Source of the DNA: Eledone cirrhosa
Taxonomy: Eukaryota
Length of the DNA stretch: 64,000 nucleotides
Direction: 5' to 3'
Assembly (NCBI GenBank): GCA_964016885.1
Contig: OZ024751.1
Coordinates: 6,014,001 to 6,078,000 of the forward strand
Of the stretch, positions 8,405 through 62,740 are shown one piece after another; position 1 is the stretch's first letter; each line of letters starts with the position of its first letter. A model generated the notes under the pieces. The model saw only the letters and a program-made list of their open reading frames with translations, was not told the DNA's origin and searched no databases. Made by a program: the position numbers and the translations under genes.

Positions 8405-9030
8405 TGAGTTCAAATCCCGCCGAGGTTAACTTTGCCTTTCATCCTTATGGGGTCGATAAAATAAAGTACCAGTAATGTACTGGATAATTGCTGGCCTTGT
8501 GCCAAAAGTGGAGACAATTACATTTGAACAACAATGGCGGTGGATTGGCAGTATCGGTAGAGGGTCGGACGCCATGCTTTGATGCATAGAGTTACGGCCC
8601 TTGCTATTCTGAGTTCAAATCCCGCCGAGGTTAACTTTGCCTTTCATCCTTACGGGGTCGATAAAATAAAGTACCAGTAATGTACTGGGTAATTTCTGGC
8701 CTTGTGCCAATAGTAGAAACAATTACATTTGAACAACAATTTTTGTTTTAGTGTCGTGTATGTATTCTGTGTGATGCGAATGATTTGTATGTGTTGAGGT
8801 TGTATGCATTTTTGGGTGTTGTGTAGTCTTTTTCTGTGATGCTGGTTCTGTGTTGGGTATAGTGTAATAATTGGTTGTTGTTCAAATTTAATTGTTTCTA
8901 CTTTTGGCACAAGGACAGCAATTACCCAGTGCATTACTGATAAAATAAAGTACCAGTAATGTACTGGATTATTGCTGGCCTTGTGCCAAAATTAGAAACA
9001 ATTAAATTTGAACAACCAATTATTACACTG
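8405..9030 (+). mobile_element. SINE cluster: 5'-truncated copy 8405-8520, full copy 8536-8725, inverted partial about 8888-8938, partial 8939-9004; includes an inverted ORF1-tail fragment at 8741-8880
   Basis: A box TGGCAGTATCGG, B box GAGTTCAAATCC, shared core GCCTTTCATCCTTACGGGGTCGATAAAATAAAGTACCAG. Confidence 0.8.
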
Positions 9031-17944: not shown

Positions 17945-18470
17945 TTGACCGGGTCACTAAATCAGTCTATTTATATCTTCTGGTGACTTCCTCGCTTCTA
18001 GTCATGTGTAGTGGCATTACTACCATCCCTCTCTTAACAGAAGGGAGTGAGGGAATAGTGGTGGTAGCGATGATGCTATGGTGATAGGTGGTGATGGGGT
18101 AGTAGTACTGTAGTGATGGTGTTGCTGCTGCTGTTGGTTTGTATCTAGGTAAATCTTTTGTGGTAGTGGTGGTGGTGGTGTTGGTGGTGAAATTATTTGG
18201 CTGTTGTTTTCTTCCATTTGTGACCATTTGTAACCATTTTCTTTTTTGACTATAAAATATCTGATACAAAATTAAATATTAAGTATTGCAGCTCTATGTC
18301 ATAATGTTATGCGTTGTCATTCCCTGAGAGTTAAGACTGGTGTCTTATGTCCCATTTGTAATAAGAATTATTGTATCACAATTGTTTTAAATATGTAAAA
18401 AAAATCAAAACTTACGAGAACGATTCCATAACATTCTATCCACCATGTGCGTCCTCTTCCCTATTCATTA
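17945..18470 (-). mobile_element. Isolated 5'UTR of R4/Dong-like family B
   Basis: Homologous to 25540-26265 (shared TTGACCGGGTCACTAA.TCAGTCTATTTATATC and CTTATGTCCCATTT..GTGCGTC.TCTTCCCT). Confidence 0.7.
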
Positions 18471-18479
18471 TTATTATTA

Positions 18480-18665
18480 TGATGGATTGGCAGTATCGGT
18501 AGAGGGTCGGACGCTATGCTTTCCAGCATAGTTATGCCCCGTTACGGTCTGTGTTGAAATCCCGTCGAGGTTAACTTTGCCTTTCATCCTTACGGGGTCG
18601 ATAAAATAAAGTACCAGTAATGCACTGGATAATGGCTGGCCTTGTGCCAAATATAGAAACAGTTA
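18480..18665 (+). mobile_element. tRNA-derived SINE between (ATT)n tracts
   Basis: A/B boxes, shared core, 3' GGCCTTGTGCCAAA..AGAAAC then (ATT)n. Confidence 0.85.
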
Positions 18666-20526
18666 TTATTATTATTATTATTATTACAGTTGCATTCATC
18701 TTGCTTTGTGTCCATACGTGTTATCACCAACCAGTGACCTCAAGAGACAACAAGAAAGAACACACATACACACACACATGCATCTTTAGGTGTTTAGACT
18801 TGTGATGTACTTAGATTGACAGAATCTTCCTTAGTATATGGGCAGTTGCCATTAGTACTATCTTTTGTATTTCTCCTATACGCGGGTTTCCTGGGATTTG
18901 CGATAAGTAATCATTAGCCCCCTTAGGTATCATTCCTAGAGCGCCTACAACAACTGGAATTGTTTTAGTTCTCAATTTCCACATTTTTCCAATTTCTACC
19001 TCCAGGTCCTTATACTCAATTTTTCAAATGTTTTTATAGATACATTCTTGTCTATTGGAACGGACATATCAATTAGCAGGCATACCCTCTTTAGAAAGTC
19101 CTTCAGTATTATATCAGGTCTATTTGCATTTATATTTCGGTCTGTATGGATGCTAAAGTTCCACAAGATTGAGATGTGATCTTTTTCAAGTACGGGGGGT
19201 GGTTGATTTCCCACCAATTCTTTTGATGGTGCAGGTCAAAATGCTTACACATTATTCAATGTATGTATTGTGCATCTCTGTCGTGCCTGTTTAGGTATTC
19301 GATTGGAGCTATAGGACTGCACATTGAAATTATATGTTCAATTGTCTCTGGTTGTATTTTACATACACGGTATAATGGGTGTCATCCACTTCTTATTGTG
19401 TTGGCTTGGTAATTTTTTGTTGGCAGACACTGATTTTGTGCTGATATAATTAGTCCTTCAGTCTCTGATTTCAGTCCAGAGGATGCCAACCACTCATGTG
19501 TTAAAGTTTTGTCAACATCAGGATTGTTAGCTCTTTCTGGGTATTTTCCATACCGAGGCTTTTCTTGCCATTTCTTAGCCAGTTTCTGTAGCAGTTCTTT
19601 CTTTGCAGTTACTTTTACCTGCCTTGCTTTTTCTGTGTTATTCATTTCAGCAGTAAATGGAACTTCTGAAATTTGTAGTCCATTACTGTATCTTTGTGCA
19701 TCTTTTGTAATGGATTATGATCTTTTGACGCTTTCGTGTTTCAAAATGAGTTTGATCATCCATTCATGTGACTCCCTTAGATATGTAGATACTCCAATTG
19801 TTGCAGTTTTCAACGCAATATCTAACTGGATTAACCCACGTCCTCCTTCTTTCCTAGGGAGATATATTCTATCTGTATCTGCCTTAGTGTGATGCATTCT
19901 GTGCATGGTTAATAATTTTCTAATTTTTGTATCGAGCCTACGGATCTCTGTGATTGACCAGTTGATGACATTGTACTGGTGTGGCAAGCCTGTTTATGGC
20001 ATCGATCCTATTCCTTGCATTCAATTCCGTTCTTAAGATTGCTCTTACTCTGCGGTAACATTCCTTCGTTATCCTTTCCCTTATTGTCGAGTGCTTGATT
20101 CCGTCTCCTTCACAAAGACCTAGATATTTGTAGTTTTCCTCTTGATCAAGTTCTCTTATCACATTCCCCCGATAAAGATTAATGTCTGAACTTTTCAGCA
20201 GCTTTCCTCTGGTGAACGTTGCTTTGGCGCATTTATCTAGTCCAAACTCCATTTTAATGTCATCACTGAACTGCTTCACAGTGGATAAAAGCCCTTGCAA
20301 TTGTTCAATATTTTTTGCAAATAGTTTCAGGTCATCCATGTAGAACAAGTGATTAATGGTTTTGTCAGAGATTTTATATCCATGTTTTGTTTCATTGAGC
20401 ATTTTACTTAATGGTATAAGTGCGATGCAGAATAAAAGTGGTGATAAAAATTCCACATTTAATATTAACTTCTCCAGCTTCCAGTGATTCTTTTTCACTA
20501 TTCAAAAGGAGTGTCATTTTACATGT

Positions 20527-23824: not shown

Positions 23825-26278
23825 ATGTCTTCATACTGAATGATAGGAACCTCCTGACAACGGGAGATATTTTGAAAATCTCTAAACATTTTTCAATCCA
23901 ACAGCATGGCAAACTATCGAATGCTTTTTTGTAATCTATCCAAGCAATTGATAGATTTTTGAGTCTATTATCACAATCTTCCAGTATCATTTTGTTAACC
24001 AAAAGCTGATCCTTACAGTCATATGAGCCTCGTTTACACCCTTTCTGCTCATTGGGAAACAGGTCATTTGTTATCAGGTGGTCATATGTATATCAGTTAA
24101 GACTGATGTTAAAATGTTATACATTGTGGTCAAGCAAGTTATCGGTCTGTAATTTTTGAGATTGTTTGTCTCATCATTCTTCGGAAGCAGGAATGTAATG
24201 CCGTTAATTAGCCATGATGGTATCTTTTCTGGCTCCTTAACTATTGCATTTTAAAGTTGGACTAACAGCTCATGAGACTCTGTGAAGGCATTTATCCAAA
24301 AATTTGATATTTTGTCTTTTCCTGGAGATTTCCATTTGATGGTTTTTCTAAAAGCCAAACGCAACTGTTCAACTGTTATATTTTCCCATGTTTGTTCCTC
24401 AAGGTGAGCTGTATCTTTCATTTGTCTGTCTATCCATGGGGATGTACATTATGAACTTTTTCTTCGGTCCAGATCTTTTCCCAGAATTCTTGCACTTCCT
24501 CCTTGGTTGGTATTGATTTAGCAGTTATTGTTGACTTGCCAATTTTTCTGTAGACGTTTCTTTGGTTGTTTTTGAACATATTATCGTCCTTATAGAATCT
24601 AGATCGTTTTTCAAAGCGCCTTAAACGAGCAGCTTGGCCGACACTTTTTGCTTGATTATTTCTATCAGCATGACTATTTCACTTGTTGATTTTATACTGT
24701 ATTTCCTTTTCAATTTTCTAAGTTTAGTTTGTTTAACATGTTCACCTACTTTGTAGTTTGTTACAATTTCTATGTCAGATCGGAGAAGTTTTATCTGGAG
24801 ATTGATGTTCTCGTGCCAAGTAGATTTCTTGTGGGAATTCCTTTGTTTTTTTTCATTTTCACTCCACATAAGTGAGTGGTGACTTTAGTCGATGCATAAT
24901 AGAGATGATTTAGTTCAGTAATGTTTAGTTTGTTTGTGATGATAATGTTTTTGAGAATTATGTTAGTCTTGTGTATTATCTTTTGATTCTGTGTGTAGTT
25001 CTGGATCTTAGGGAGACTGTCTCGTCCCCCCATGTCAGATTCTTTCATTTTCATCCATTCGATCATAATTTCATTCTTCAAGTTGGCAAGTTCATTCTCA
25101 TTCATTTCATTATCATTTACGATCTCATTGTTTTCATTTTGAGTTTCATCTTGAGCATGCACTCCCTCCACTTTTTCGATCTTTTCTTTTATTTGTTCTG
25201 TTGCCAGTGATTCCGCCCCAACCCTGGGATTCGAAGTGTTACAGTTTACCTCGTTTTCACTGATACATGTTTCATTTTCCCTTCGCTGACTTTGTGCGAA
25301 TTGCTTGATCTGATCAATTTCTAGTAACTTTTTTTAAACAATATTTCTTCGTATATTGGCTAGTGTTGTTACTGTCAATATAGCCTCTGATTTCGGGATG
25401 TTTCTTTTTTCATTTGATATATGTCTGTTCTCTATTCGATCTATTTGATGGGTAGTACATGGCAGTGTACAAACCCTCAATGACTTCTTTATTGTCTTCC
25501 CTTGGAAGGGGGTAGCCAGCAGTACCATAGTCGTTGACGTTTGACCGGGTCACTAAGTCAGTCTATTTATATCTTTTGCTAGCCTCTCCCTTGTCTAGTG
25601 ATACCGACACCTTCCCCTTTCTTAAATTAACAGAAGGTAGTGTGATAGTAATGGTGGCAGCGGTGTGATAGCAATGATGGAGTGGTGGCGGCGGTGACTG
25701 TAGTTATGGCGTTGTCGCTACTTAGTTATTTTGAATAGACTGTAACTAGTATGCGTTTGATTGATCTGTATATCTATGCGGTTTGTCGCCTATGTTTAAT
25801 ATATATGTTCACATATTTCTTTAATATTTGAATTAAACATTTTGAGAATACTAGAGACACTATAATTGTAATTATTATTATTATGCTGGGAGTAGTGGTG
25901 TTGGTGGTGAAATTGCCGTTATCTGGCTGTTGTATTTAGTGTACACACGGGGGTGGTGGGATAGGTGCGGTATCTAGGTTTTGGTGGTGGTGAAATTGCT
26001 GTTATTTGGCTGTTTTATATAGTGTAGACAGAGGGGTTTTCTTCCATTTATAACCATTTTCTTTTTTGAATACAAAATTGAATATTTGAGCGATATAACA
26101 GGATATTATGGGTTCTCATTTCCTGAGGGATAAAACCTGGTGCCTTATGTCCCATTTCTAGTAAGAATTGTTATATCACAATTGTTTTAATTTGTTAAAA
26201 ATCAAAAACTTACGGGAGCGATAATATAACACTCTATCCACCACGTGCGTCTTCTTCCCTTCCTTATTATTATTATTA

Positions 26279-26840
26279 TGGTGAATTGGCAGTGTCGGTA
26301 GAGGGTCGGGCACAAAGCTTTGACGCATAGAGCTACGGCACTTGCTATTCTGAGTTCAAATCCCGCCGAGGTTGACTTTGCATTTCATCCTTACGGGGTC
26401 GATAAAATAAAGTACCAGTAATACACTGGGAAATTGCTGGCCGTGTACCTAAAGTAGAAACAATTATTATTTTTATTTGGGAGGGTTGGACGCCATGTTT
26501 TCTAGCATAGTTACGTCCCTTTACAGTCTGAGTTCAAATCCCGCCGAGGTTAACTTTGCCTTTCATCCTTACGGAGTCGATAAAATAAAGTACCAGTAAT
26601 GTAGTGGTTAATTGCTGGCCTTGTGCCTAAAGTAGAAACAATTATTATTAGGGCGGTGGATTGGCAGTATCGGTAGAGGGTCGGAGGCCATGCTTTCCAG
26701 CATAGTTACGTCCCTTTACGATCTGAGTTCAAATCCCGCCGAGGTTGACTTTGCCTTTCATCCTTATGGGGTCGATAAAATAAAGTACCAGTAATGCACT
26801 GGATAAATGTGTGGCCTTGTGTTTAAAGTAGAAACAATTA
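26279..26840 (+). mobile_element. Three tandem SINE copies (26279-26466, 5'-truncated 26479-26645, 26652-26840) separated by short ATT tracts
   Basis: Each has B box, core and AGAAACAATTATT end. Confidence 0.88.
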
Positions 26841-26867
26841 TTATTATTATTATTATTGTTATTGTTA

Positions 26868-36414: not shown

Positions 36415-36625
36415 TACTGCTTTAGGCACAATACCAGCAATTTTTGGGGAGCGGGAAAGTCGATTAAATTGACATCAGTACGTACTGGTGCTTTTATTTA
36501 TCGAACTTGTAAGGACAAAAGGCAAACTAAACATCTGTGGGATTTGAAATCAAAGCATAAAGGAAGGTAACTATAAATTACAAAGCATATTATCCGAGGC
36601 TCTACCGATACTGCCAATCCACCGG
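36415..36625 (-). mobile_element. Diverged SINE copy
   Basis: Reverse complement gives GGTGGATTGGCAGTATCGGTAGA..TTTGCCTTT..CGATAAATAAAAGCACCAGTA..TTGTGCCTAAA. Confidence 0.7.
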
Positions 36626-36644
36626 CATAATATCGATAATGATT

Positions 36645-36915
36645 ATAAATGGAAGTTAAATCATTCACCATTGTCCAAGTGGTGGTTAGTGATCTTGGCA
36701 TGGTGACAAAGAACCTTGAAAACAAGCTGTTGAAACTACACTTAAACCGCTTCAGAAGTCATGCCTACTAGGAAGATAACGAATATTGAGAAAGGTTGAC
36801 TACCAGCAATATTGGAATGACAAGGACTGATATGAAAAAGTTGGAGTTACTCTAGTTGTAGCCTGGTATTCTCTAAAATATCCGGCCCAAAGCAACATCA
36901 AAATAGTCAAATAAT
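36645..36915 (+). mobile_element. Old 3' fragment of an RLE element
   Basis: Translates WKLKSFTIVQVVVSDLGMVTKNLE..LQKSCLLG..ILRKV across frameshifts; followed by a short AAT tail. Confidence 0.6.
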
Positions 36916-37717: not shown

Positions 37718-38237
37718 GTAAAAGGAAAAGAAAATGCTGACAAATTGTTCCCAGGGAAAAATAGTTTAATTAGGAATAAGTAAAAATTAGTAATAAGTAT
37801 TAAGTAATCAGATTAGATAAGTAATCAGATTAGAGCAAACATCACGGGCACTCTATCTGAAAAATTATTTTTGAAAAGCATTAGAAATGCGCAACCGGTA
37901 AAAACTTAAATCCAAAACTGAATACTAACCAATACTTATTATTAGTGAATTGGCAGTATCGGTAGAGGGTTGGACGCCATGCTTTCTAGCATAGTTACGT
38001 CCCTTTACAGTCTGAGTTCAAATGCCGCCGAAGTTAACTTTGCCTGTTATCCTTACGGGTCGATAACATAAAGTACCAGTAATGTACTGGGTAATTGCTG
38101 GCCTTGTGCCTAACGTAGAAACAATTATTAATTTTTACTTATTCCTAATTAAACTTTTTTTTAATGGGAACAATTTGCAGCATTTTCTTTTCCTTTTACC
38201 AATATATCACAACTCGTGTGTTACACCTCTATTCTTT

Positions 38238-38282: not shown

Positions 38283-38286
<4 letters not shown>

Positions 38287-38451
38287 CATTGGAAGAACAT
38301 TGGAAGGTAATAGCCGTAGATGTGGAGAACTCAGTCCTTGGGACGAGTTTGGTAGAAGTAGTAACACAACAGTTAGTTCAGCATACCGAGAACAATTATG
38401 CGGTGAAACAATTGTTTTCGGTATGCTGAACTAACTGTTGTGTTACTACTT
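38283..38451. mobile_element. Miniature foldback derivative of the Penelope-like element at 43931
   Basis: Homologous to 43938-44045 and 46812-46860; about 42-bp inverted arms; flanked by (TA)n. Confidence 0.8.
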
Positions 38452-38577
38452 ATATATATATATTATTCAGTTTAGGAAAGCTGATTGATCAGATGCTATG
38501 CGTATAGACACACGCACTCACACACACACACACACGTACACACACACACACATTGACACACTGACACCCCCTCCACG

Positions 38578-38830
<253 letters not shown>

Positions 38831-38873
38831 ATATATATATATACATATTGTTATGTATAGTATATTTGGCAAT

Positions 38874-40165
<1,292 letters not shown>

Positions 40166-40175
40166 TGTATATGTA

Positions 40176-43884: not shown

Positions 43885-43936
<52 letters not shown>

Positions 43937-44030
43937 GTGGAACACTGGAAGGTAATATCCGTAGTGGTAGAGCACTCAGTCCAAGGGACGAGTTAGGTAG
44001 GAGTGGTTACACAACAGTTAGTTCACCATA

Positions 44031-44070
44031 CCGAGAACAATTGTTTCACCTTCCCGGATCTTCAGCTCGG
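44031..44070 (-). ncRNA. Minimal hammerhead in the inverted pLTR
   Basis: CCGAG CTGAAGA TCCGGGAAGGT GAAA CAATTG TT CTCGG; palindromic stem III. Confidence 0.8.
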
Positions 44071-44536
44071 GATGTGTATGGTTATAGGAACAGGAAGGAC
44101 AACCGTACGAACGCGCATGCGCAGAAACTCGGACACTTCACACAGGCAATACTAGACTGCGTGCGGGAGGTGTAAGGGAGATAACTGCGAAAGTCCGGAA
44201 AGTTTTTAGGTTGAAAATAAAATAAACAAAATTACAAAGAATCAGTCCGGAGCCTTATAGTTATGCAATAGGTTTTTTGTTGATCTGTGGACAACGTGTG
44301 AAAAATTCACTTCTCGTGTTTAGGCAATCACTATTGCGTAATCTCTACCACTACGGATATTACCTTTCAGTGTTCCACCACTATCTACGTCTCCAGCAGC
44401 GGTCAGAAATTCTCCTCACTACGTAGAAGTTTGGCTTTTAGCAGATTCTTCACCACGTGCGAGTTTGGCTTACTACCCTGAGAGCGCTCTATATATCCTC
44501 GTGTCTTACACAATTTTGCGTCTCATCAACGTTAGT

Positions 44537-46622
44537 ATGGATTTATACGAACTGAATTACTCCCTGAAGAACATTCCAACTCCCTCCAACCATGTTTACC
44601 AAAAGCTCCTCCTACAAAAAGCGGAAGATGTCGTCAGACGCTTAAGATGGCGAGCCCTAGCTTTCGACGGCAAAATTACAGGCACAAACAACACCTTCAA
44701 TCTGAAATTCAGAGCCTACCCTCCTAAGGTAACCGAACTTGCTCCTTTCGAGACGGACCTTCTTGACTTAGTCGCCAACATATCCTTTCGCAAACACACT
44801 TGCACCTTTCAAACGAAACTCAGAAACGATATTAAGAAATTTAGGTCTTCTAATAACACCTTCGTCCTTTCCGACAAAACTAATAATATTTACGAAGTCG
44901 ACAACACCACTTTGCGCCACCTGGCCCATAACACTATTACTTCTAAATATAAGAAAGCTAACCCTATGGTCTACCACGACATTAATACAGAAGCCAAGGA
45001 ACTCGCCACCAACCTTAATGTAGATAAGAAGCTACAATCTCTAGCTAAGCGGGAGGCGTTCCTCACCCTGAAAGATCACAAGGTAGAATTTACTTTTAAC
45101 CCCACATGTAGACTAATAAACCAGGCACGCACAGATATGGGACTAGTCAGTAAGGCCATACTTAGAAACATAGTTAAGACCATTAGGACCAAGTCCAACC
45201 TGCCCCAGTGGGAGAACAGCGACTCTGTTAATAAGTGGTTCAACTCCTTAAAATCCCAAAAAGCGAAGTTCACACAGTTTGACATTGTCGATTTTTACCC
45301 GTCGATCTCAGAGACCCTGTTAAACAAAGCGTTGGACTTCGCTACCACTTATACCACCGTCGATAGTTTAGACAGGGAAATCATCGGTCACTGCCGGAAA
45401 ACCCTCCTCTTCAACGACGGAGTAGCCTGGGCAAAGAAGTCTACATCTTCAGACGTCTCCATGGGATCGTTTGACAGTGCTGACGTATGTGACTTGGTTG
45501 GCCTTTTTATCTTAGACATATTACGTGTTAGATTCCCGGACTTCCACACGGGAATATACCATGACGATGGGACTGATTTTATCGAGCCATAAAAGTGGTC
45601 ACGACCTTGACCGGTTTACAAAAGACTTAGCTTCTACCTTCAATGAGTTAGGCCTTAGGATAACAGTAGCCACCAACATCTCTAGCGTAGACATTAATTT
45701 AGACCCTCGCACCCACACCCACAGACCCTTCCATAATCTAAACGAGAAACCTAATTACATTCACAAGGACTCATGCCACCTTCCCACTGTTTTTAGAAAC
45801 TTCGTTAAGAATATCAGTACTAGAATCTCAAACCTCTCCTCTAATAAGGCTATCTTTGACTGGGTGGCACCCTACTATAACACGGCGTTGGCTAACAGCG
45901 GCTTCTCACAACCTATCACCTACTCTCCCACTAGCAACAACATGATTAAGAAAATTAAGCGCATCAATGGACAAACTATCTGGTTCTTTCTTCCCTTCTC
46001 ACGCAACGTTAAAACCAATGTAGGAAAAACATTTCTAGCCCTCTTAGATAGACACTTCCCCATAGGTCATAAATACCGTTCCATCTTTAACAAAGTTAAA
46101 CTAGGATACTCCTGCGCTAAGAACATGAAGGCCCACATCACAAGCAACCCTAGGAGCAACACCCCAATAGGGTGCTCTTGCCGTAAGCCTGAAGCTTGCC
46201 CCTTTCAACAGCAATGCAACACTCCAGCTGTAATCTATGAAGCTGTGGTCACTTCCAACCGACCAAACGAACCACAGGAGGTCAAATCCTATATGGGCAT
46301 GGCGGAGGGCCGATTCAAGGAGCGTTTCCTGAGCCACCAGTCTACCTTCAGATACCCGGACAGACGTTCATCCACGAAACTCGCGAGCCACGTATGGTCC
46401 CTCAAGGACTCAAGTATTGGCTACTCCATTCAATGGAAAGCCATCACTAAGTCCAAGCCATACGAAAGGGGAAATCCGACGTGTGGCTTATGTAATGACG
46501 AACGAATATCTATCCTAAAGAGATTATGCAATAGTGATTGCCTAAACACGAGAAGTGAATTTATCACACGTTGTCCACACGTCACCAAATATCTATTGCA
46601 TAACTACAAGGCTCCGGACTGA
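44537..46622 (+). pseudogene. PLE RT-GIY-YIG ORF split by a frameshift near 45570
   Basis: SDKT, TLKDHK..CRLIN, FDIVDFYPSI, SMGS, GIYHDDG; VIYEAVV..YMGMAE.RFKERF..H; CGLCNDE; LNTRSE. Confidence 0.9.
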
Positions 46623-46792
46623 TTCTTTGTAATTTATTTTATTTTATTTTCAACCTAAAAACTTTTCGGACTTTCGCAGTTATCTCCCTTACACCTCCCG
46701 CGCGCAGTCGAGTATTGTCTGTGTGAAGTGACCGTGTTTCTGCGCATGCGCGTTCGTACGGTTGTCTTCCTCTTCCTATAACCATACACATC

Positions 46793-46832
46793 CCGAGCTG
46801 AAGATTCGCGAAGGTGAAACAATTGTTCTCGG
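46793..46832 (+). ncRNA. Minimal hammerhead in the 3' pLTR
   Basis: CCGAG CTGAAGA TTCGCGAAGGT GAAA CAATTG TT CTCGG. Confidence 0.8.
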
Positions 46833-47091
46833 TATGGTGAACTAACTTGTGTAACCACTTCTCTCTCTCTATATATATATATATGAATGGAGGCGGTGAA
46901 AACCAGTTAGACCTTTACTCACCAGAGTATGGATACTTGGGATAGTAGAGTGGGTAATATGAAAAGGTTAGTGGGTAATAAGAATAACAGGACTCCGGCG
47001 GCTGTGCCCTGCCGTTACGACAGCTAGATCCCAATCCAGAGTACGGATCTCGCTATTGAAACGTCTGCAACTCAGCCGTTAGGGTCCTGAT

Positions 47092-47220
<129 letters not shown>

Positions 47221-47338
47221 AATAAGAGGAATTCCAACTTTGCCTGATTTACTCGTTTTATTTACAATACTTTAAAATATATATAATATGGTATTATAAT
47301 GAAATAGTATGTTAGAATGTTAAATTCTAAGTGTTAAT

Positions 47339-47377
47339 TGAACAAGTACTTTCATGCTTTCGCAATCTTCAGGTTCA
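47339..47377 (-). ncRNA. Minimal hammerhead in the 3' pLTR (second copy at 51515-51553)
   Basis: TGAAC CTGAAGA TTGCGAAAGCAT GAAA GTAC TT GTTCA. Confidence 0.82.
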
Positions 47378-47760
47378 TGATATGTGGTGACAGTCGAGTT
47401 TGCAATTTTCAACTGTAATGAGATGGGTAAATTTACTACCTTTTATACATTTTATACAGAGAAAAGTGGCTCCAGAATGCAAAGCCCTGTAAACTGTATT
47501 TCGACCAATCAGTGTGTAGTTTCACTGAATTACTACAGCTGATTGGTTTAAGCGTCACGGCTGGTTGAGCATGCTAACGACCAATGGTCATACCCAACGT
47601 ATCAATTGTTTTGCTTTTTGAAATGATGAAAATAGCATTTTCTATTAATCATCACCATCAACATCACTTTTATTATTATTATTATTATTATTGTTGTTGT
47701 TGTTGTTGTTGTTAGTGGTCGTGGTCATAGTGGTAGTAGAAGTAATACCCCTAGGCGTTA

Positions 47761-49960
47761 TTATTGTTCATTTAGCTTGGGTTTGAATTTATCAATAAAA
47801 TTCTTTTCTTTGATTTTTCTCTTGATTTCACTTGGGCTGTGTAATTTGTAGAATGGGAATATTATAAATATTCCCTGACCACATGTTGCCAGGTGGCCGC
47901 TTAGGGGTATCTGACGGACATTTGGGTCTCTGATTTGTTGACGGTGTACCCGTGCACGTTCCGATAGTGCATTTCCAGTTTGACCGACATATAGTTCTTC
48001 ACAATTCGGGCATTTAATGCAGTAAATTAGATTTCTGCTTTTGCAGTTCATATTTGCATTTGGGAATATTTTTCCAGTTTTTGTTTTCATATATTGACCG
48101 GCGTGTATGGATTGACATGTGCCGCATCGATTATCATTGCATTTAGATACAGTGAATGATTGGTCTTTGTTGTTAAGGTCAAACTTTGCTTTTGTTAGCA
48201 ATTGCTTCAAATTTTTGGCTGTCTTTTACTAAGAGTCAAAGATCGATCTGTGATTAAGCCTTTTAATTCATTACTTTGAGCAATGATCGGTAGGTTTGCT
48301 TCGGCAGTGTTGAATATATTCTGGTGACATGGGTTGTGTGTCATTATAAATGGTATGACCAGTTCTTGGTTTCTTCTTCCTTGGGTTGTTCTAAGTTGTT
48401 GTATAGGTATTTTTATAGCCCGCTGTATGCCATTTTCTATAAGTAGAAATGGGTATTTTTGTTTGAGCAAAAATTCTCTTAGTTCTGTTAGGCGTTTGTA
48501 CCTGGTATTCGTATCTTCTACAATGGTACAAATTCTTCTGGCTAGGCAGTATGGGATGTTGCGTTTTGTATGAGGTGGATGGCACGACTTAAAATTCAGA
48601 TATTGATGGGTGTCTGTGTGTTTATAATATATATCCGTGGTAATGGTGGTGTCGTTTTTGATTATCATTATATCTAGGAATGGTAATTTGGTCCTACTCA
48701 TCTCTTTTGTGAATTGGAGAGATGGGTGTAGGTTATTCAGGAGGATATTGAACTCATCCAGAGTATCTAGAGATTCTGTCCAGATGATGAAACAGTCGTC
48801 AAGTTATCTCTTCCAAGATTTTTCAATGTACTTTCTAAAGTCAGTACTATATTTTTCCTCTATTTCTTGGTAGAATTGTATCCCATTACAGAGTTCACGT
48901 AAACGGGAACAAACTTCGTTCCCATCGCTGTGCCTCTAATGTGGATGTAATTCTTTCCATTGAAGAAGAAACTGTTGTTTTCCGGAATAAGTTTAACTGC
49001 GTCTATGAATCACTTCTCTATGTTTTTCCACCCAGTATTTAACCGCCTTTATTCCTAAATCATGTGTAATGTTGGTGTAAAGGCTTACCACATCAAAACT
49101 GAGTAGAAGTGAATTCGTTTCCGTGGTTTTGGGAAGATGGGACAGGAAGTCGATATCCTCCCGGATGAAACTGGGTATGGGAATACATAGTGGTTTCAAA
49201 ATAATGTCAACAAAATTGCTTAGACGGTGGGTGGGCATGTTGGACCAGCTATAATAGGTCTAAGTTTTAAGTCTTTTGGGTGTAATAATTTAATGTACTC
49301 ACTGTTTTGTTCTCTTACTGCCAGTTGTATTTCTTTTGACTTATGAACTTTCGGTAGGCCATACAGGTTGCTGGGTTTCGGCTCAAAATTGGTGATGTAT
49401 TCTCTTTCCTTATCAGTAAGTGAGTTGTGGTATTTTGAAGCCAGGTTGTTGATCTTCTTCATGATGTTGTAGTCTATATTTGACGGTATTTCATGATAGA
49501 ATGTTGTGTCTTTCAGTTGTTCCTCAACCAAATCCTTGTAGTATTCCGTATCCATTATAACAACTGCACCCCCTTTATCTGCTTGTTTAATTATTATTGT
49601 TTTATCATTTTGTATACGTTTAAATGCAGACATTTCTGATTTGTTAATGTTTGGCCTAACATTAGTATTATGTCTAAGAGGAAATTTAGACAGGATGTCA
49701 ATGTATTGGTCGAGATAGATATTTCTTCCTTTTGGCGGAGTTAAATTTGATTTATTCTTTACTAGTGATTCATCACTCTCATTACTTTTATCAGTGAAGA
49801 AATCTACAAGACGTAATTTTCGACAGAATTCTTGGGTATCCTCCTTCAGTTCTTGGTGGTTGTCTGTTGGAGTCGGTGTGAATTTCAGTCCTTTTGACAG
49901 AATTTGCATTTCATCATTGTCAAGATCTCTTTTAGATAAATTAATTATTTTAGGATCTAC
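47761..49960 (-). pseudogene. PLE RT + GIY-YIG, several frameshifts
   Basis: LSKGLKF.P, ADKGG, YGLPKVHK..LRPII, FDVVSLYTNI, PFLD, TDIYYK.T; CNDNRCGTC linker; LIYCIKCPNCEELYVGQT..R..H..H. Confidence 0.9.
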
Positions 49961-51306
49961 GTGTACAGTTGATTTGGATATGTTTCCTCCTGGAGTTTTT
50001 CTTTTTCCGGTTTTTGTTGTCCTGACGTTAAAAAATAGATTTTTCTCTGTTCAGGATTTATATTCCTGTTGGTGTTCGCTTGATGAACTTTTGGTCGTGA
50101 TATTATATTTGGTTTCGTTATGTATTTTGTCCTATTTTTGGTATTCTGTATATTATTTTTCTTCCTGTTAGCATTATTTTTAACAATCTGGGGAAATGAC
50201 CTAGGTTTGCTTTCAGGTTTAGATCGTTTTTTCGTCCAGTTTCTTGTGGGCAATCTCTGTTGAGATCTTGAGAGTGATCTGGTTATTCTACGTTTTGTTT
50301 CCACATTCCTTGTTGGTAGTCTCTGTTGAGATCTTGAGAATGATCTCCTGGTTTTACTACTTCTCATGGTCTGGTCAAAGGAATACCTATCGTGTTTGTG
50401 CTTTTTGTTCATGTTGTGTGCGATAGGGTGTTTTTGTCGAAAAAGCGAAGAGTTATTACCGTAGTTCTTCTTTGATTCAAGGTAGGGTGAGTGTTTGTGT
50501 TGGCACGTGTTCTGGCGTATGTTGTGTTGATGAGATTGTCCACTTTTAATGCTTTTTCTCAGGGTTCCAGAGTCTTTACCGTAATTTGCAGCATATTCAT
50601 CGAGAAATAATTGTTTCTGCTGCCATACCTTTCTTGATTTGTTTTCTTCGTTTGAGATATCTCCGATCCATAGTTCTCGTAGTTTTTCAGCTATAATACC
50701 AGTCGTTAGCTTTGAAATTTCAACTTCAATTTGGTTATCAATAGCTTCATATTTGGCTTTGTAGCGGGATTGTTTACATTCAGAAATGGAGATGTCGGTT
50801 CTGAATTTTGTCAATGTAAGTTCCCATCGGAGTTTTGTTTCTTCTTCTGGTTCTCCTGCAATTTCTGTAATTAGGTATTTACGAGGGAGTATGGGTGCCG
50901 TTAGAGAGAGCCATTTCGAATGTGTTTCGACATATTTTTCGCATCTGTATGCTTTCCAGAAATTTTGTTTTCTTATGTTAAGGAATTTTTTCCATGTCTT
51001 CCACATTTCTTTTCTTATTGGATGTGTTTTGTTTTCCAAATTTCTTTCGTTTATTTCTGACATCCAAGGGGGTTGTGGTAGGCTTTCTCTTGTATCTTTG
51101 ATAACTGTTGGTATAATTTCAGCTAAATTCTTAATTTCAGAGTTTATATGTTCAGTTATAAGTTTTCCGTCTGTAGATTGTTTTTCTATTTCCTTTAAAG
51201 TAGAGGATTGTGTGTCCATCATCGTGATAAGTGTTGATAATTTCGATGATATCTCCTTTAGAATTCTTTCTGATTCTGTTGGTTTCATTTGTTGCTTTCC
51301 AGACAT
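49957..51306 (-). CDS. PLE upstream ORF or N-terminal extension (helical N-half, basic Arg/Ser-rich C-half), about 449 aa from MSGKQQ
   Basis: Long open frame between the 5' pLTR and the RT, same strand; no recognisable domain. Confidence 0.65.
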   Translation of the reverse strand: MSGKQQMKPTESERILKEISSKLSTLITMMDTQSSTLKEIEKQSTDGKLITEHINSEIKNLAEIIPTVIKDTRESLPQPPWMSEINERNLENKTHPIRKEMWKTWKKFLNIRKQNFWKAYRCEKYVETHSKWLSLTAPILPRKYLITEIAGEPEEETKLRWELTLTKFRTDISISECKQSRYKAKYEAIDNQIEVEISKLTTGIIAEKLRELWIGDISNEENKSRKVWQQKQLFLDEYAANYGKDSGTLRKSIKSGQSHQHNIRQNTCQHKHSPYLESKKNYGNNSSLFRQKHPIAHNMNKKHKHDRYSFDQTMRSSKTRRSFSRSQQRLPTRNVETKRRITRSLSRSQQRLPTRNWTKKRSKPESKPRSFPQIVKNNANRKKNNIQNTKNRTKYITKPNIISRPKVHQANTNRNINPEQRKIYFLTSGQQKPEKEKLQEETYPNQLYT

Positions 51307-52406
51307 GTTGGCATATACACAATAGGAATATATATATATAGATATAGATAGGTAAATATACACGGGTGTGTATGATTGTGTATAGAAGATTATATTAATA
51401 AGAGGAATTCCAACTTTGTCTGATTTACTCGTTTTATTTACAATCCTTTAAAATATATATAATATGGTATTATAATGAAATAGTATGATAGAATATTAAA
51501 TTCTAAGTCTTAATTGAACAAGTACTTTCATGCTTTCGCAATCTTCAGGTTCATGATATGTGGTGACAGTCGAGTTTGCAATTTTCAACTGTAATGAGAT
51601 GGGTAAATTTACTACCTTTTATACATTTTATACAGAGAAAAGTGGCTCCAGAATGCAAAGCCCTGTAAACTGTATTTCGACCAATCAGTGTGTAGTTTCA
51701 CTGAATTACTACAGCTGATTGGTTTAAGCGTCACGGCTGGTTGAGCATGCTAACGACCAATGGTCATACCCAACGTATCAATTGTTTTGCTTTTTGAAAT
51801 GATGAAAATAGCATTTTCTATTAATCATCACCATCAACATCACTTTTATTATTATTATTATTATTATTGTTGTTGTTGTTGTTGTTGTTAGTGGTCGTGG
51901 TCATAGTGGTAGTAGAAGTAATACCCCTAGGCGTTATTATTGTTCATTTAGCTTGGGTTTGAATTTATCAATAAAATTCTTTTCTTTGATTTTTCTCTTG
52001 ATTTCACTTGGGCTGTGTAATTTGTAGAATGGGAATATTATAAATATTCCCTGACCACATGTTGCCAGGTGGCCGCTTAGGGGTATCTGACGGACATTTG
52101 GGTCTCTGATTTGTTGACGGTGTACCCGTGCACGTTCCGATAGTGCATTTCCAGTTTGACCGACATATAGTTCTTCACAATTCGGGCATTTAATGCAGTA
52201 AATTAGATTTCTGCTTTTGCAGTTCATATTTGCATTTGGGAATATTTTTCCAGTTTTTGTTTTCATATATTGACCGGCGTGTATGGATTGACATGTGCCG
52301 CATATATATATATATCACAGAATAAAGAGAATCAGTGTTGCGACGAAAGGAATTTATTGGACATATTACAATTGATTCTCGAGCGACCAGCTCGAGGCAG
52401 GTAGAA

Positions 52407-54704: not shown

Positions 54705-55147
54705 TATTATGTATATATATAGAGAGATAGATATATACACATACACATATAGATATATTTGTGCGTGTGTGACTGTATGTGTGTGTTTATGTATGAGCGT
54801 GTGTACGAAGTTAGCATGTCGTATTGTCTAAATTTTTCCAGATACTATCATTATTTTGAAGAAATATTCATTTGAATTCCAAGTATTGTACAATGGAATA
54901 ATATATGTTTACCGATTCCTTATTCATTATCATAAATGAAGTATAGTGGAGATAAATTTACTGGTGGTTTCGTAAACAATGCAGTATTCATGGCCGTATT
55001 AGTATATCTTCATATATATATTGTAGACATTTGATATATATATACATAAACTAAAACACGCCTACGTTGGAAGAATCATATTCCCGTGTATACATAGTCA
55101 CACATCCACACACACACACACTCACACACACACATATATATATATAT

Positions 55148-55580
55148 ATATACGATATTAATAAATGTAAACTATATTTATAAAACCATATTTATTTCAT
55201 TATACATATTTCAGGGATACCAAATTAAATTATGGTATGCCTTCATCAGACAAAATACAATATATAACAGTTTTACAAATAAGCTTTGACGTACCCTTTT
55301 GAAATGCAACCATTATTTTTAGAAAATAATGGTTGCATTTTAAAAGGGTACGTCAAAGCTTATTTGTAAAACTGTTATATATTGTATTTTGTCTGATGAA
55401 GGCATACCATAATTTAATTTGGTAGCCCTGAAATATGTATAATGAAAGAAATATGGTTTTATAAATATAGTTTCCATTTATTAATATCGTATATCTACTC
55501 CAAATACTTGTCGAGTACTTTATATCAGTTATAAAAATATTTACTTGTTGTATCCCAACAATTTTAAATAGAACTTTTGC
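55148..55580. repeat. About 345-bp near-perfect palindrome plus about 85-bp tail, two outward-facing HHRs (55195-55255 -, 55387-55447 +)
   Basis: TTTTGT CTGATGA AGGCATACCA..TGGTAGCCCT GAAA TATGTATA ATGAAA; centre about 55321. Confidence 0.88.
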
Positions 55581-56792: not shown

Positions 56793-58517
56793 CATATGTA
56801 TATGTATGTATATATACACATACACGCGCGCGGACACATATATATATATATATATTTATATATACATATGCATATGTATGTATATACACACATACACCCC
56901 CCCCCACACACACACACATATATATATATATATACACACACATTTGTGTGCATGAACATGTTTATCTCTGCGTGTGTATGAATGTGTGTGTTGGTTACTG
57001 CGTTAATGTATACGTCATAGGTGCACATTCCAACCCAAAACATACCGACCATCATTTACATGCTTAGTAATATGATAATTTTCTTTTCGTTATTACAGAC
57101 ATTATGTAAAATGCACATTTATTTCATTTACCATCAAGAACTATACATTAGTTATTTCGATAAACTGATATTATAATATATGCAATACATTTTCACACGG
57201 TGTTATAATCTCTTGCTTTAGTAAACTCATGAACCTAGCATATTGTTTTGATATTCATAAATACGGTAGGTTAATGGCCTTGCAATGTGCAATATTCGAC
57301 TATTTGATATATTATATTATTGGATATATCTGTTAGCTTTATCACAAAATATCATGCATTCTCATTCTTAAGTTGGTTATTGAAACGTATTTTGGATTTC
57401 GCTAGATAACATAGAATTTCTCTAACATGTGGAAATGAACTCATGAATACTATATGTGAATTTCTTTATCTTTTTTTTTTATTTGTGTAGGGAGGGGTTA
57501 ATTTTAATCATCAGATCTCTTTTTCTTTATGATGAGGTGTGTTTCTGATATATTTTGTTTTTGGTATCTTTTGTTGCTTATTGTTTTTAACACCTCTTCC
57601 ATTCATTTCGTATCTTTAGGATAAATATTTCCAAAATATAATGGATGAAAGGCATTTTAAAACATTACGTTTTTTTTTGTTGTTTTTTTGAGTGCGGTGA
57701 TTGTGCTGGAAGATTATGTATAATATACACACAATACCAGAGGTATCACAATAGGACACCGAGCTTCAATTTATATTAATGATAGACACAGAATTCTACA
57801 GAACAATAGGAAATTTGCTGAGGTAAAAATAACAAAAATACGTTTCTATCAGAAAAGGATATAAATAAGAGATACGTATAATAAATATAATATAATAATA
57901 TCCTCATTTAATAGAAATCCCGAGAAAAATTTCCAGGTATATTCCACCTTTGAAGATTCTCTCCTCGTTAATGCTTGTCGTTCTTGTATTATTGTATAAG
58001 GGAAGTAAATATACTTTAATGGATTCTCAATGACGTTCATACGTGACAATTTCTATTTCATGAGAAAGATTCACTATTTTCTGTAACGATTATTATGTTT
58101 GGGATAATTTCCCTGGTCATCGTCTATTGTAATAGTAAGAAAGGGCAATAAATGCGTAGATTCACAACTGAAACGAGAATAAAACCCATGAGGGAATAGG
58201 CTCCAGGAATTTTATATCCTATCAAAATTACTCAGGGAATACAATATTATTATACACACATTATTATGAATATTATGATACGTGTCAGATTTTATCGACG
58301 AATAAATGCATGAAATACACCCGAGAGCACGCATATCGGAGGATGAATCGATCTATACACACATACAAAAAAAAATATATATACGCCATGACAGACGTAC
58401 AAAAACACACGCATACATCAACCTGGTATTGAGTGAATGAAGTATATATCTTTTTTGGCAGGTTTGAGTCGGCCAAAGATCACATTGTCAAACAGAGACA
58501 TACACAAGCCGCCACTT

Positions 58518-58600
<83 letters not shown>

Positions 58601-58604
<4 letters not shown>

Positions 58605-59379
58605 AATTTATATCTAGTAACATTTATATACATACAGATGCATATCAATGCTAGCAAATATATAGGTTTTGTCTTAGTAACGTTGTGGTTCAATGCATGG
58701 GGTTGCAGAACAATAATATGAGAGGCGTAAGATAAGAAAATTATAAAATTATAAAAAGATTATAAAATTGACTTACTTACTAAAATATCACTTTCAACTA
58801 ATTAGTTTCTGGAATGGAGTAAATATATTTTCCGAAGAACATATTGAAAAGCATTCCGTCGTCAGGAAAGTCTCTTTTCGTGTAAGTTTCCAGGCATAGC
58901 GAGGACTCTGGAAACTTATTAAAAAATAATTCAGTGGATAGGAGATAGCGAAGCGTGGACTGAAATCCTAGCCATTGAGAAAATCACTGCCTCTACGTCT
59001 GTGGCAAATTCAAAAAGAATCAATCACGTGACATCGAGGTCAATCAGTGGAAAGCGAGTTGTTAATAAGACAGCGGCCTGCTTACTACTATAGCAGCAGT
59101 CATGGCCAATATTGCTCGACAAATGAATTGGAGATAATTATAAAGAATTTATATCTAGTAACATTTATATACATACAGATGCATATCAATGCTAGCAAAT
59201 ATATAAGTTTTGTCTTAGTAACGTTGTGGTTCAATGCATGGGGTTGCAGAACAATAATATGAGAGGCGTAATATAAGAAAATTATAAAATTATAGAAACT
59301 AATTAGTTGAAAGTGATATTTTAGTAAGTAAGTCAATTTTATAATCTTTTTATAATTTTATAATTTTCTTATCTTACGC

Positions 59380-59388
<9 letters not shown>
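58601..59388 (-). mobile_element. Non-coding HHR element: 541-nt monomer in partial tandem plus inverted arm; HHR at 58790-58871
   Basis: 58601-58753 repeats at 59142-59294; 59294-59388 inverts 58716-58808; ACTTTC CTGACGA CGGAATG..CATTCCA GAAA CTAATTAG TT GAAAGT. Confidence 0.85.
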
Positions 59389-59429
<41 letters not shown>

Positions 59430-59687
59430 CGTGTGTGTGTGTGGGTGTGGTCATTGATTCATCTTTACAGATGATTGCCGTCTCTCTATTCACCACCATC
59501 AACTATCACGAACTCCAAACGTCCGTCCATGGCCCCTTAGGTGGCTTTTAATTCCAGCATTATATTAGCACGGTCTGCAGCAAATGTGACAGACAAAAGA
59601 TGTGTCGTCTATTGCATTGATAGGGTCAGTTTGGGGGATTTCTGCATATATATATATTATATTAAAATACATATATATATATTAATA

Positions 59688-61065
59688 TACAAATATTAAT
59701 AAAATAGATGTTCTTTTGATCAATTACATTTTATTATACATATTTCGGATGTACAACCGTACGTCCTCATCAGACAAAATATAAAGATACATGACATACC
59801 CTGAGATGTTAAATGGTTAAGATTTAATCAAGGTAGTGATTAACCCAAGAAAAATTTAACATTTATACCCTAATAATGAGAAAATGCGAAAACGTAATAA
59901 ATTCAACAGAGAAAGTGCGAGTAAGAAAAACGTTGCTTAATGTAACAGTTATATAGATATTAAGTTGTATGATACTACTTTTTTTTGAATAAAGGGGGGT
60001 AATAAGCTGAAGGAGATTTATTTTTGCCGAAATTTAAACGGTTAATTTTGAAAATATTAATTTATGGTATTATAGGGTGAAGGCTCGAGATTTTTTTTTT
60101 TTTTTTTTTATTTCTGGTTATTTATATATTAGTTTTATAAATTCTTCAAAGCTTCCTAATTTCATGTGGGTAACATTTATAGGAATTAGCTGGCCAACAG
60201 GAGTGAAAGTTTATACTGTTGATTAATTTCAACTTTAACGGAGATACTGAGCGTATTAGGTATGTAAAGCTTGTGAATTATATATATTAATGAGCCAGTA
60301 TATTTTAGATAGATGATAATAAAATAATAGATTGATGCATGTTAAGGTTAAATATACACCTATATATATAACAGGGTGTAAATGCATTAATTATTCTTAG
60401 TTCAGAGTAAACGTAATCAAAAAATTTAGAAGTTAACTAAAAATTATATATAGTAATATATAGGGAGGTATATATAGATATATATTAGGTATTAATGGTA
60501 CAGTATACTTTAGGTAGATGATAACGGTTACAATTTTAAATATAATAAAGTTCTACGTGTTACAGTTAAATACATATATGTATATAAGAGAAAGAATAAT
60601 AAATAATACATGGATTATTCAGAGTTCAAGATAATGTCTATAATTTATAGTTTGGATATTTGCTCTATATTTGAATCATGGATATATAAATGCAATAGGT
60701 CTATTTAAAAAAAAAGTAACGTTTTTCTTCTCGCACTTTCTCTGTTGAATTTATTACGTTTTCGCATTTTCTCATTATTAGGATATAAATGCTAAATGTT
60801 TCTTGGGTTAATCACTACCTTGATTAAATCTTAACCATTTAACATCACAGGGTATGTCATGTATCATAATATTTTATCTGATGAGGACGTACAGTTGTAC
60901 ATCCGGTATAATAAAATGTAATTGATCAAAAGAACATCTATTTTATTAATATTTGTATTTTAATATTAATAACTCTGGAAAGTTATTTTAACCGTAGAGT
61001 GCTTCCAATCTACTGTAAAACTCATTCTTTAACATACTCATTGAATCTTGTTAAACTATTTAAAA
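59688..61065. repeat. Foldback element: about 245-bp inverted arms (59688-59933 and 60718-60958), about 780-bp AT-rich spacer, about 100-bp tail; HHR in each arm
   Basis: Minus strand 59728-59779: TTTTGT CTGATGA GGACGTAC GGTT GTACATCC GAAA TATGTATA ATAAAA; the plus-arm copy lacks AAATAT. Confidence 0.85.
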
Positions 61066-61501: not shown

Positions 61502-62740
61502 TATGTATACGTACATACATATATGTATACAGACGTACAGTACTATGTATATACATACATACATGCACACACATATATATATGTACGTATGGGTTTACCG
61601 AACATTTATTATAATTGTTTCTACGTTTGGCACAAGGCCAGCCAATTACCCAGTGCATTACTGGTACTTTATTTTATCGACCCCGTAAGGATGAAAGGCA
61701 AAGTTAACCTCGACGGGATTTGAACTCAGATCGTAAAGGGACGTAACTATGCTGGAAAGCATGGCGTCCGACCTTCTACCGATACTGCCAAATCACCGAA
61801 CATTTATTATAATGCCGAATTATTAGCCGTACAGTGTTCGGCAACCATCGTTGCCATTTTGTTCAACACTGACAAATGAACGATGAACTAGTTTCTAGCA
61901 TATTAGCTGTCATCAGAAACGTATACCTTCCTGTCAGTTGATTGAACTTTTGAAAGTATATACTTTTCTTATGCCTATTAACGGCTGAGCAACCTAATTT
62001 GCATATCGAGTGAGTTAGTCAGCCGGGCGTACTGAAAACGATAAATGGAAAAAATGAAATTTCATTTCTCACTCTTAGTACGGCCGACTAACTCATTCGG
62101 GCTGTTTGTTTACAAACAAACCGAGCATTATAATACATTTTCGGTAAACCCATACGTATATATATATGTGTGTGCATGTATGTATGTATATACATACTAC
62201 TGTACGTCTGTATACATACATGTATGTACGTATACATACTTTTATTTAAGTATCAGCCCTACTAAGAGTGACAATTGAAATTTCACTTTTTCCATTTATC
62301 CCTTTCGGTACGCCCGGCCGACTAACTCACTCGATATGCAAATTGGCTGCTCAGCCGTTAATATGCATAAGGAACGTATATACTTTCAAACTTTCAATCA
62401 ACTGACAGGAAAGTATACGGTGCTGAAGTCAGCTAATAATGGCACGCAGCTAAACAATAATAGTTCATCGTTCGTTTATCAGTTTTGAACAAAATGGCAA
62501 CGATGGTTGCCGAACACTGTACGGCTAATAATTCGGGCTGTTTGTTTACAAAGAAACCGAGCATTATAATAAATGTTTGGTAAACCCATACGTACATATA
62601 TATATATGTGTGCATGTATGTATGTATATATACATACTACTGTAAGTCTGTATACATATATATATGTACGTGTACATACTTATATTTAAGTATCAGCCGT
62701 ACTAAGAGTGATAAATGAAATTTCATTTTTTCCATTTATA
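61498..62740. mobile_element. Non-coding HHR element: inverted monomer (61498-62092) joined to a 440-nt-period partial tandem (62096-62740)
   Basis: TTAAGTATCAGCC recurs at 62246 and 62686; minus-strand CTGATGA CAGCTAATATGCTA GAAA CTAG TT CATCG at about 61881-61921. Confidence 0.8.
61616..61797 (-). mobile_element. SINE with about 19-bp target-site duplication
   Basis: ACCGAACATTTATTATAAT at 61597-61615 and 61795-61813. Confidence 0.88.

Follow-up and report, generated by a model that had tools for sequence, protein, structure and literature searches.

The insert at positions 58601–59388 of the 64-kb window (the whole stretch of DNA that was analysed) was found to be one copy of a multicopy, protein-less 541-nt repeat bearing a hammerhead motif. 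It is likely a non-autonomous derivative of Penelope-like elements (PLEs), namely a pseudo-LTR lacking an ORF, and its insertion into a (TA)n tract was likely carried out by the GIY-YIG nuclease and reverse transcriptase of an autonomous partner. The probability that we assign to this reading is about 0.72. The element is thereby likely a small retrozyme-like parasite of PLEs, of a kind already described in animals.

Anatomy of the insert and its hammerhead motif

The 788-bp insert is bordered on both sides by (TA)n tracts, to which no strand is assigned. One of them (58520–58600) lies at the long 3' end of the element, where three nucleotides, TAT, match what would continue the unit, and the other (59385–59426), read from the sequence, lies at the opposite end. 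As both flanks are TA tract, no target site duplication could be read at the insert. Repeat comparison and ORF listing delimited a full 541-nt ORF-less unit on the minus strand (58601–59141), preceded in the direction of that strand by a 5'-truncated direct copy (59142–59298, minus strand) devoid of the hammerhead. This copy forms a partial tandem like that of a pseudo-LTR and was recognised by repeat comparison and by its joint in other runs (X1, X5 and X13, see below). The initial annotation had claimed a direct repeat with period 541, present 1.3 times and with no meaningful ORF, and this was confirmed: the stretches 58601–58757 and 59142–59298 are 157 nt long and 98.1% identical, with three mismatches (58665, 58731 and 58754), the direct part of the insert comprises 698/541 = 1.29 units, and the longest ORF starting at ATG has 27 codons, the longest stop-to-stop frame reaching 76. 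The ORF-less status was read at this locus, and the ends listed for other copies do not cover the sequence beyond 59141. No coding remnant was detected by ORF and repeat comparison in the 5' part of the unit at this locus. The G+C content (0.31 for 58001–60000) is below the 50% used as a criterion for retrozymes.

The remaining piece is an inverted copy placed head to head on the plus strand (59294–59388), which repeat comparison identified as the exact reverse complement of 58716–58810 (95 nt, 100% identity). An arm starting at the hammerhead GAAA had been announced from the sequence, and its first base is indeed located one base ahead of that motif; its final four nucleotides, ATAT, could be target sequence. 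The outer end of this arm, together with X1 contigs, defines a second, internal 3' end at 58716–58720 (minus strand), a putative second site at which reverse transcription could begin, where ATAT provides microhomology to the target. The initial annotation had missed this end and also the fact that the locus contains a single complete ribozyme. Along the hammerhead strand, the order is therefore inverted piece, 5'-truncated copy and full unit, and both outer ends are 3' ends joined to TA. The two 3' ends (58601 and 58716–58720) are 115–119 nt apart and are located 195 nt (long end) and 76–80 nt (internal end) past the predicted cut.

Motif scan and folding identified a type I hammerhead motif on the minus strand (58790–58871), with a palindromic stem III and a C·A mismatch at the base of helix II. 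Stem I has 6 bp (58871–58866 with 58795–58790), the core elements CUGACGA and GAAA are found at 58865–58859 and 58809–58806, helix II has 6 bp (58857–58852 with 58816–58811) and a long 37-nt loop which holds its own 8-bp hairpin, and stem III is a 12-nt palindrome (58796–58807). At the GUU site, cleavage is predicted between 58796 and 58795. Every letter of the hammerhead core is present, and helix II is set off from this core by the C·A mismatch. All the parts previously claimed for this minus-strand ribozyme (6-bp stems I and II, long loop, palindromic stem III, GUU site) were thus recovered. In contrast, one complete hammerhead per monomer was found only for the full unit: the partial direct copy stops about 40 nt short of the second cut site, and the inverted arm carries only the 3' half of the hammerhead. 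Because there is one ribozyme only, this copy would not release a monomer by itself. Both the palindrome at stem III and the additional base that follows A9 match the traits given for PLE hammerheads in PMC4209133.

A relaxed hammerhead scan found eight cores in the 64-kb window and one in total over 30 Markov-resampled windows. A pattern derived from the motif gave one match in the window and none in 100 shuffles, a result which is not independent as the pattern was written from the motif itself. The hammerhead scan found no plus-strand (ambisense) hammerhead. Rfam gave no match at gathering score in the window, and none of its 31 matches down to E = 10 was a hammerhead; these matches corresponded to miRNA-type models on TA tracts and were taken as chance. 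With respect to folding, the 106-nt hammerhead fragment folded no better than its shuffles (z −0.05), stems I and II had a predicted formation probability of 0.85–0.98 in isolated fragments, and within the 541-nt unit the active fold was predicted to lie about 9 kcal/mol above the minimum. The sense strand of the unit folded with z values of −4.7 to −5.7, the antisense strand with −2.0 and the flank with +0.3.

The repeat family and its joints in other runs

The family was surveyed in four runs (X1, X4, X5 and X13) of a total of 15, part of the unit being contained in 12 of the 15 and no run being recorded as RNA; runs X7–X12, with a small share, were not used. The 541-nt unit is a dispersed multicopy family. 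Its relatives, mostly 82–99% identical, amounted to 1,580, 63 and 35 contigs and 6,149 reads in the four runs, the 1,580 contigs belonging to a single one, and the family was also found under a second organism label. The summed read depth over the unit does not equal copy number. These matches in four runs exclude that the sequence is single-copy, and a multicopy, ORF-less and hammerhead-bearing repeat with 1,580 contigs in one run bears out the retrozyme-type retroelement that had been proposed.

Among the joints listed, the head-to-tail joint (59141 to 58601 or 58604) was present in three X1 contigs, one X5 contig, with 154 letters on its short side, and one X13 read. A variant joint (59138 to 58601, with three letters between) appeared in X1 and X5, and no head-to-tail joint was among those listed for X4. 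Since one X1 contig carries a different joint (59124 to 58732), the ends of the element are mostly fixed, not perfectly so. Permuted ends had been expected in other copies, but the joints proved mostly fixed, with the same head-to-tail joint in three of the four runs. Among the ends listed, 12 X1 contigs had (AT)n directly before 58716, which is the end of the inverted arm. In X5, record 17 (587 nt) aligns to 58795–59141 and then to 58601–58754, comprising unit and partial copy, and a joint to the opposite strand at 58793 with the same depth (33.8) was taken as belonging to this record. No dimer or array was seen in the four runs, in which no listed piece spans the unit. Dips in X13 depth at 58753–58790 and 59133–59141 were rejected as biology, as five of the six read-end peaks shown are on AATT sites clustering there; because these peaks fit a restriction-digest library, X13 says little about the joint.

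Variation within the family was also recorded. Among the variants listed, which are unphased, the stem I pair 58867/58794 is U-A, U·G or C-G, all of them compatible; on the sense strand G predominates at 58794, and C is frequent at its partner 58867, with shares of about 25% (X1), about half (X13) and 65% (X4). Subfamilies sharing part of the unit end, among the ends listed, at 58685, 58883 and 59049, and one of them diverges 3' of 58685 (748 X13 reads). In one related subfamily the 5' half of the hammerhead differs and contains a CUGAUGA core, and a single related contig lacks the hammerhead through an 89-nt skip. The hammerhead pattern had no match in metagenome contigs or in prokaryote genomes, and a 27-nt motif from the unit had none in viral contigs. 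Two metagenome loci matching a 19-nt motif (L001 and L002) were attributed to chance, as they have only 21 nt in common with the unit and no upstream core.

Insertion signature and neighbouring Penelope-like elements

The insert displays a set of PLE features: a partial tandem forming a pseudo-LTR (157-nt copy, period 541, joint in three of four runs), an inverted 5'-truncated copy head to head (59294–59388, with the opposite-strand joint in one X5 contig), alternative 3' ends at two positions and a tail on one side only, a hammerhead of type I whose stem III is palindromic, an AT-rich or microsatellite target, and no ORF of its own. In the available parts of the published work, partial tandems, an adjacent inverted 5'-truncated copy, a one-end tail and a bias for (TA)n are described for PLEs by Craig et al. 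(PMC8557442), who also report non-autonomous PLE families with the same insertion structure, and head-to-head joints with palindromes are described by Arkhipova et al. (PMC3846280). According to Frangieh et al. (PMC11167929), AT-rich DNA is cut on both strands by a PLE protein, which then extends each of them; reverse transcription begins internally, at two positions 3' of the hammerhead, and the RNA that serves as main template is uncut. Retrozymes have been proposed to be PLE derivatives (bioRxiv 10.64898/2026.07.22.740005).

Two coding PLEs are located in the same window. The one at 43932–46860 (plus strand) encodes an RT-like protein according to atlas features (score 0.94), in an ORF broken by a frameshift near 45550, and presumably belongs to the Hydra clade. 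Its two hammerheads are located at 46798 and, within an inverted arm of 348 nt, at 44065; its ends lie 33 and 104 nt past the cut, about 70 nt apart. The other, at 47221–52303 (minus strand), contains several frameshifts and a GIY-YIG domain at 47764–48225 (Pfam, E 3.6e-7); it shows a 907-nt partial tandem (99.4%) between TA tracts and two identical minimal hammerheads (47372 and 51548), and ends 123 nt past the cut. The PLE reading of the ORF-less insert is supported by these two ORF-bearing elements, which share its insertion signature. The view of the initial annotation that a more-than-unit-length copy points to a circle was not supported: a partial tandem with an inverted copy is the ordinary PLE pattern, also found in both PLEs of the window. 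Some observations count against a PLE derivative. The unit has no meaningful similarity to the pseudo-LTRs of the two window PLEs (best E 0.2), and the gap of 115–119 nt between its 3' ends exceeds the published 30–40 nt and the approximately 70 nt of the neighbouring element.

Several other repeats were observed in the window. A 169-bp insert in a TA tract (38284–38452) consists of two head-to-head end fragments of the 43932–46860 family, joined at the stem III palindrome of the hammerhead and with one arm starting at GAAA; given this insert, stopping at the foot of helix II may recur, the cases being few. Three further ORF-less inserts are probably PLE-derived: a near-perfect 353-bp palindrome at 55145–55497 with two hammerhead or hammerhead-like motifs (55249 and 55393), a pair of related inverted arms, 184 nt each, on either side of a long TA-rich tract at 39101–39892 with hammerhead or hammerhead-like cores, and 256-nt inverted arms at 59683–60962 with a canonical-looking hammerhead motif at 59773. 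The pair at 39101–39892 is itself nested between perfect inverted arms of 161 nt (38870–39030 and 40007–40167). Positions 1–34500 are occupied by a dense nested array of RT-encoding retroelement copies, 75–99% identical to each other, with RVT_1 matches at 11934, 15505, 19941 and 26947 and zf-RVT matches at 26947 and 30897. Finally, a repeat of about 190 nt, partly in tandem, is found in at least six places on both strands (8405–8740, 18224–18686, 26266–26861, 36476–36645, 37936–38143 and 61608–61798).

Proposed insertion model, possible templates and relation to known retrozymes

In the insertion model that we propose, the nuclease of an autonomous PLE partner would nick both strands of the TA tract, and each target 3' end would prime on the RNA, through a microhomology of 3–4 nt, at one of two fixed AU-rich sites located 195 and 76–80 nt downstream of the cut site. 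A long cDNA of about 694 nt would pass an uncut or religated ribozyme site and then the head-to-tail joint, a short one of about 91–95 nt would end at GAAA, the foot of helix II, and both would be joined head to head, microhomology at the joint being almost nil. In effect, the template would exceed one unit, by way of a linear multimer, a circle or a jump to a second RNA. Because both cDNAs cross the cut site, the templates would have been uncut or religated. The extra 0.3 unit does not decide between a circle and the other templates, since the same DNA would result from a linear multimer or from two templates.

A true circular-RNA retrozyme is a tentative possibility. In it, arrays elsewhere would give 541-nt monomers cut at the hammerhead and ligated, and the PLE reverse transcriptase would start at a fixed site of the circle and run 1.3 rounds. 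This explanation names the template and is a refinement of PLE mobilisation, not an alternative to it. The predicted circle fold (−123.3) is stronger than that of its shuffles (−94.3 ± 4.4, z −6.5, 40 shuffles, 61% paired), although the pseudo-LTR of the neighbouring coding PLE also folds well (z −3.0). In addition, a 17-nt strand (59041–59057, minus strand) is predicted by folding to pair with 58804–58788 across the cut site, with 16 of its 17 positions paired, three G·U pairs and only the U of the cleavage site unpaired, an arrangement that would suit a splint or a lock. This pairing (−17.7 kcal/mol) was equalled in 0 of 1,000 and 1 of 300 shuffles and ranks first among 55 sliding windows (z −3.9). 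Applied to three other hammerheads of the 64-kb window, the test was negative (36, 112 and 188 of 300 shuffles as strong). Among the variants listed, which are unphased, the common ones leave two inner pairs of this helix intact and disrupt the outermost one. The strand overlaps a word also present in the repeat of the neighbouring PLE; we take this word to be CAAT-like, and conservation of the strand could then reflect a promoter box. A simple on/off switch was rejected as the role of the strand, as stem I was not regained in longer transcripts after its removal: its predicted probability was still 0.00–0.10 in four truncated transcripts. The alignment of the X5 record described above begins at 58795, and its fold-back is at 58793, both within 2 nt of the cut and at the predicted monomer ends; this single record, whose library type is not given, fits a hairpin cDNA of a cut monomer and could also be a genomic copy like this insert. 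Circles of this kind are produced by known retrozymes (PMC7229834), plant retrozymes include cases of blocked hammerheads (PMC4918200), and a circular template has already been proposed for PLEs (PMC4209133). However, the single complete hammerhead of the locus, the absence of dimers or arrays among the listed pieces, the C·A mismatch at helix II and the predicted cost of the active fold in the unit weigh against the circle, as does published work, in which a purified PLE did not need hammerhead cleavage and no reads ended at the cut site (PMC11167929), and eight of nine Xenopus retrozyme dimers were without in vitro cleavage (bioRxiv 10.64898/2026.07.22.740005). A still more specific model, which we consider speculative and rather improbable, would combine these elements in a retrozyme with the full PLE insertion fingerprint, whose 541-nt RNA would carry its own 17-nt splint over the cut site, holding the ends for ligation and locking the circle, and this circle would be the template copied by the PLE reverse transcriptase. 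If true, this would establish a direct link between the circles of animal retrozymes and the transposition of PLEs, and provide a small substrate for the question of the role of the hammerhead in PLEs.

The unit could instead be the 3' non-coding end, or pseudo-LTR, of a longer coding PLE, the insert then being two heavily 5'-truncated copies with an inversion. That PLE insertions are mostly 5'-truncated (PMC8557442, bioRxiv 10.64898/2026.07.22.740005), that the non-coding end of the neighbouring PLE (47221–47760) is also of about 540 nt and that large subfamilies share only part of the unit (the 58685 ends among those listed, with 748 X13 reads) speak for it. We nevertheless find it unlikely, as truncation at random would not place the head-to-tail joint at the same position, to within 3 nt, in three of four runs, including a copy about 5% diverged, and the 5' part of the unit is free of coding remnants at this locus. 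A duplication at DNA level or an assembly artefact in this microsatellite-rich region, where TA tracts and inverted repeats abound and the inverted arm is 100% identical, is very improbable: the direct copies differ at three positions, and the same joints and the same TA-joined end recur in independent runs.

With animal non-LTR retrozymes the element has in common an ORF-less, AT-rich, head-to-tail unit with one type I hammerhead, multiple copies, a structured sense strand and co-occurrence with PLEs. Its 541 nt exceed the 150–450 nt given by Cervera and de la Peña (2020, PMC7229834) and fall within the 51–972 bp of Li, Clavereau and Pollet (2026, bioRxiv 10.64898/2026.07.22.740005), and axolotl HHR_Amex2 likewise has a helix II with a mismatch (U·U) at its base (PMC7229834, bioRxiv 10.64898/2026.07.22.740005). 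Further traits of non-LTR retrozymes are self-cleavage in vitro, monomer RNAs in linear and circular form, the lack of PBS and PPT and, when present, target site duplications of more than 4 bp. With its one complete hammerhead, the insert falls at this locus outside the two-hammerhead definition of an 'active' retrozyme in that preprint, and its hammerhead is predicted to be blocked, whereas most metazoan retrozyme hammerheads are predicted, in the sources available, to be free. Published hammerheads of PLEs and retrozymes are described there as weak or dispensable (bioRxiv 10.64898/2026.07.22.740005, PMC11167929, PMC4209133). A hammerhead predicted to be paired with a complementary strand which prevents the active fold is shared with plant LTR retrozymes (PMC4918200), but these have type III hammerheads, true LTRs, PBS and PPT, 4-bp target site duplications and Gypsy machinery. 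The likeness to endonuclease-positive PLEs and their non-autonomous forms comprises the partial tandem, the head-to-head inverted 5'-truncated copy, the two 3' ends, the (TA)n target and, upstream of these ends, a hammerhead whose stem III is palindromic; the unit differs from these PLEs by having no ORF, a gap between ends of 115–119 instead of 30–40 nt, and a 37-nt helix II loop with a hairpin. MRC1 exemplifies the putatively non-autonomous PLE families that form pseudo-LTRs (PMC8557442, PMC3846280, PMC11167929, PMC4209133). The element likely works like an animal non-LTR retrozyme and is classed as a non-autonomous PLE derivative. The general kind is described in the literature, in which we found no paper on this 541-nt family; a species-level description could have been missed.

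In the available text of bioRxiv 10.64898/2026.07.22.740005, animal retrozymes are argued to be non-autonomous PLEs from co-occurrence and sequence trees, insertion anatomy is not used and the mechanism is left open. In the insert described here, a hammerhead unit devoid of an ORF bears the insertion signature of PLEs, and this is evidence of a direct kind for the tie between retrozymes and PLEs. Two features deserve to be followed: the strand predicted to cover the cut site, and the long distance that separates the 3' ends. Short, young and multicopy, and endowed with two fixed start sites and a strand predicted at the cut site, the family would be a handy substrate for comparing the PLE reverse transcriptase on circles and on linear multimers.
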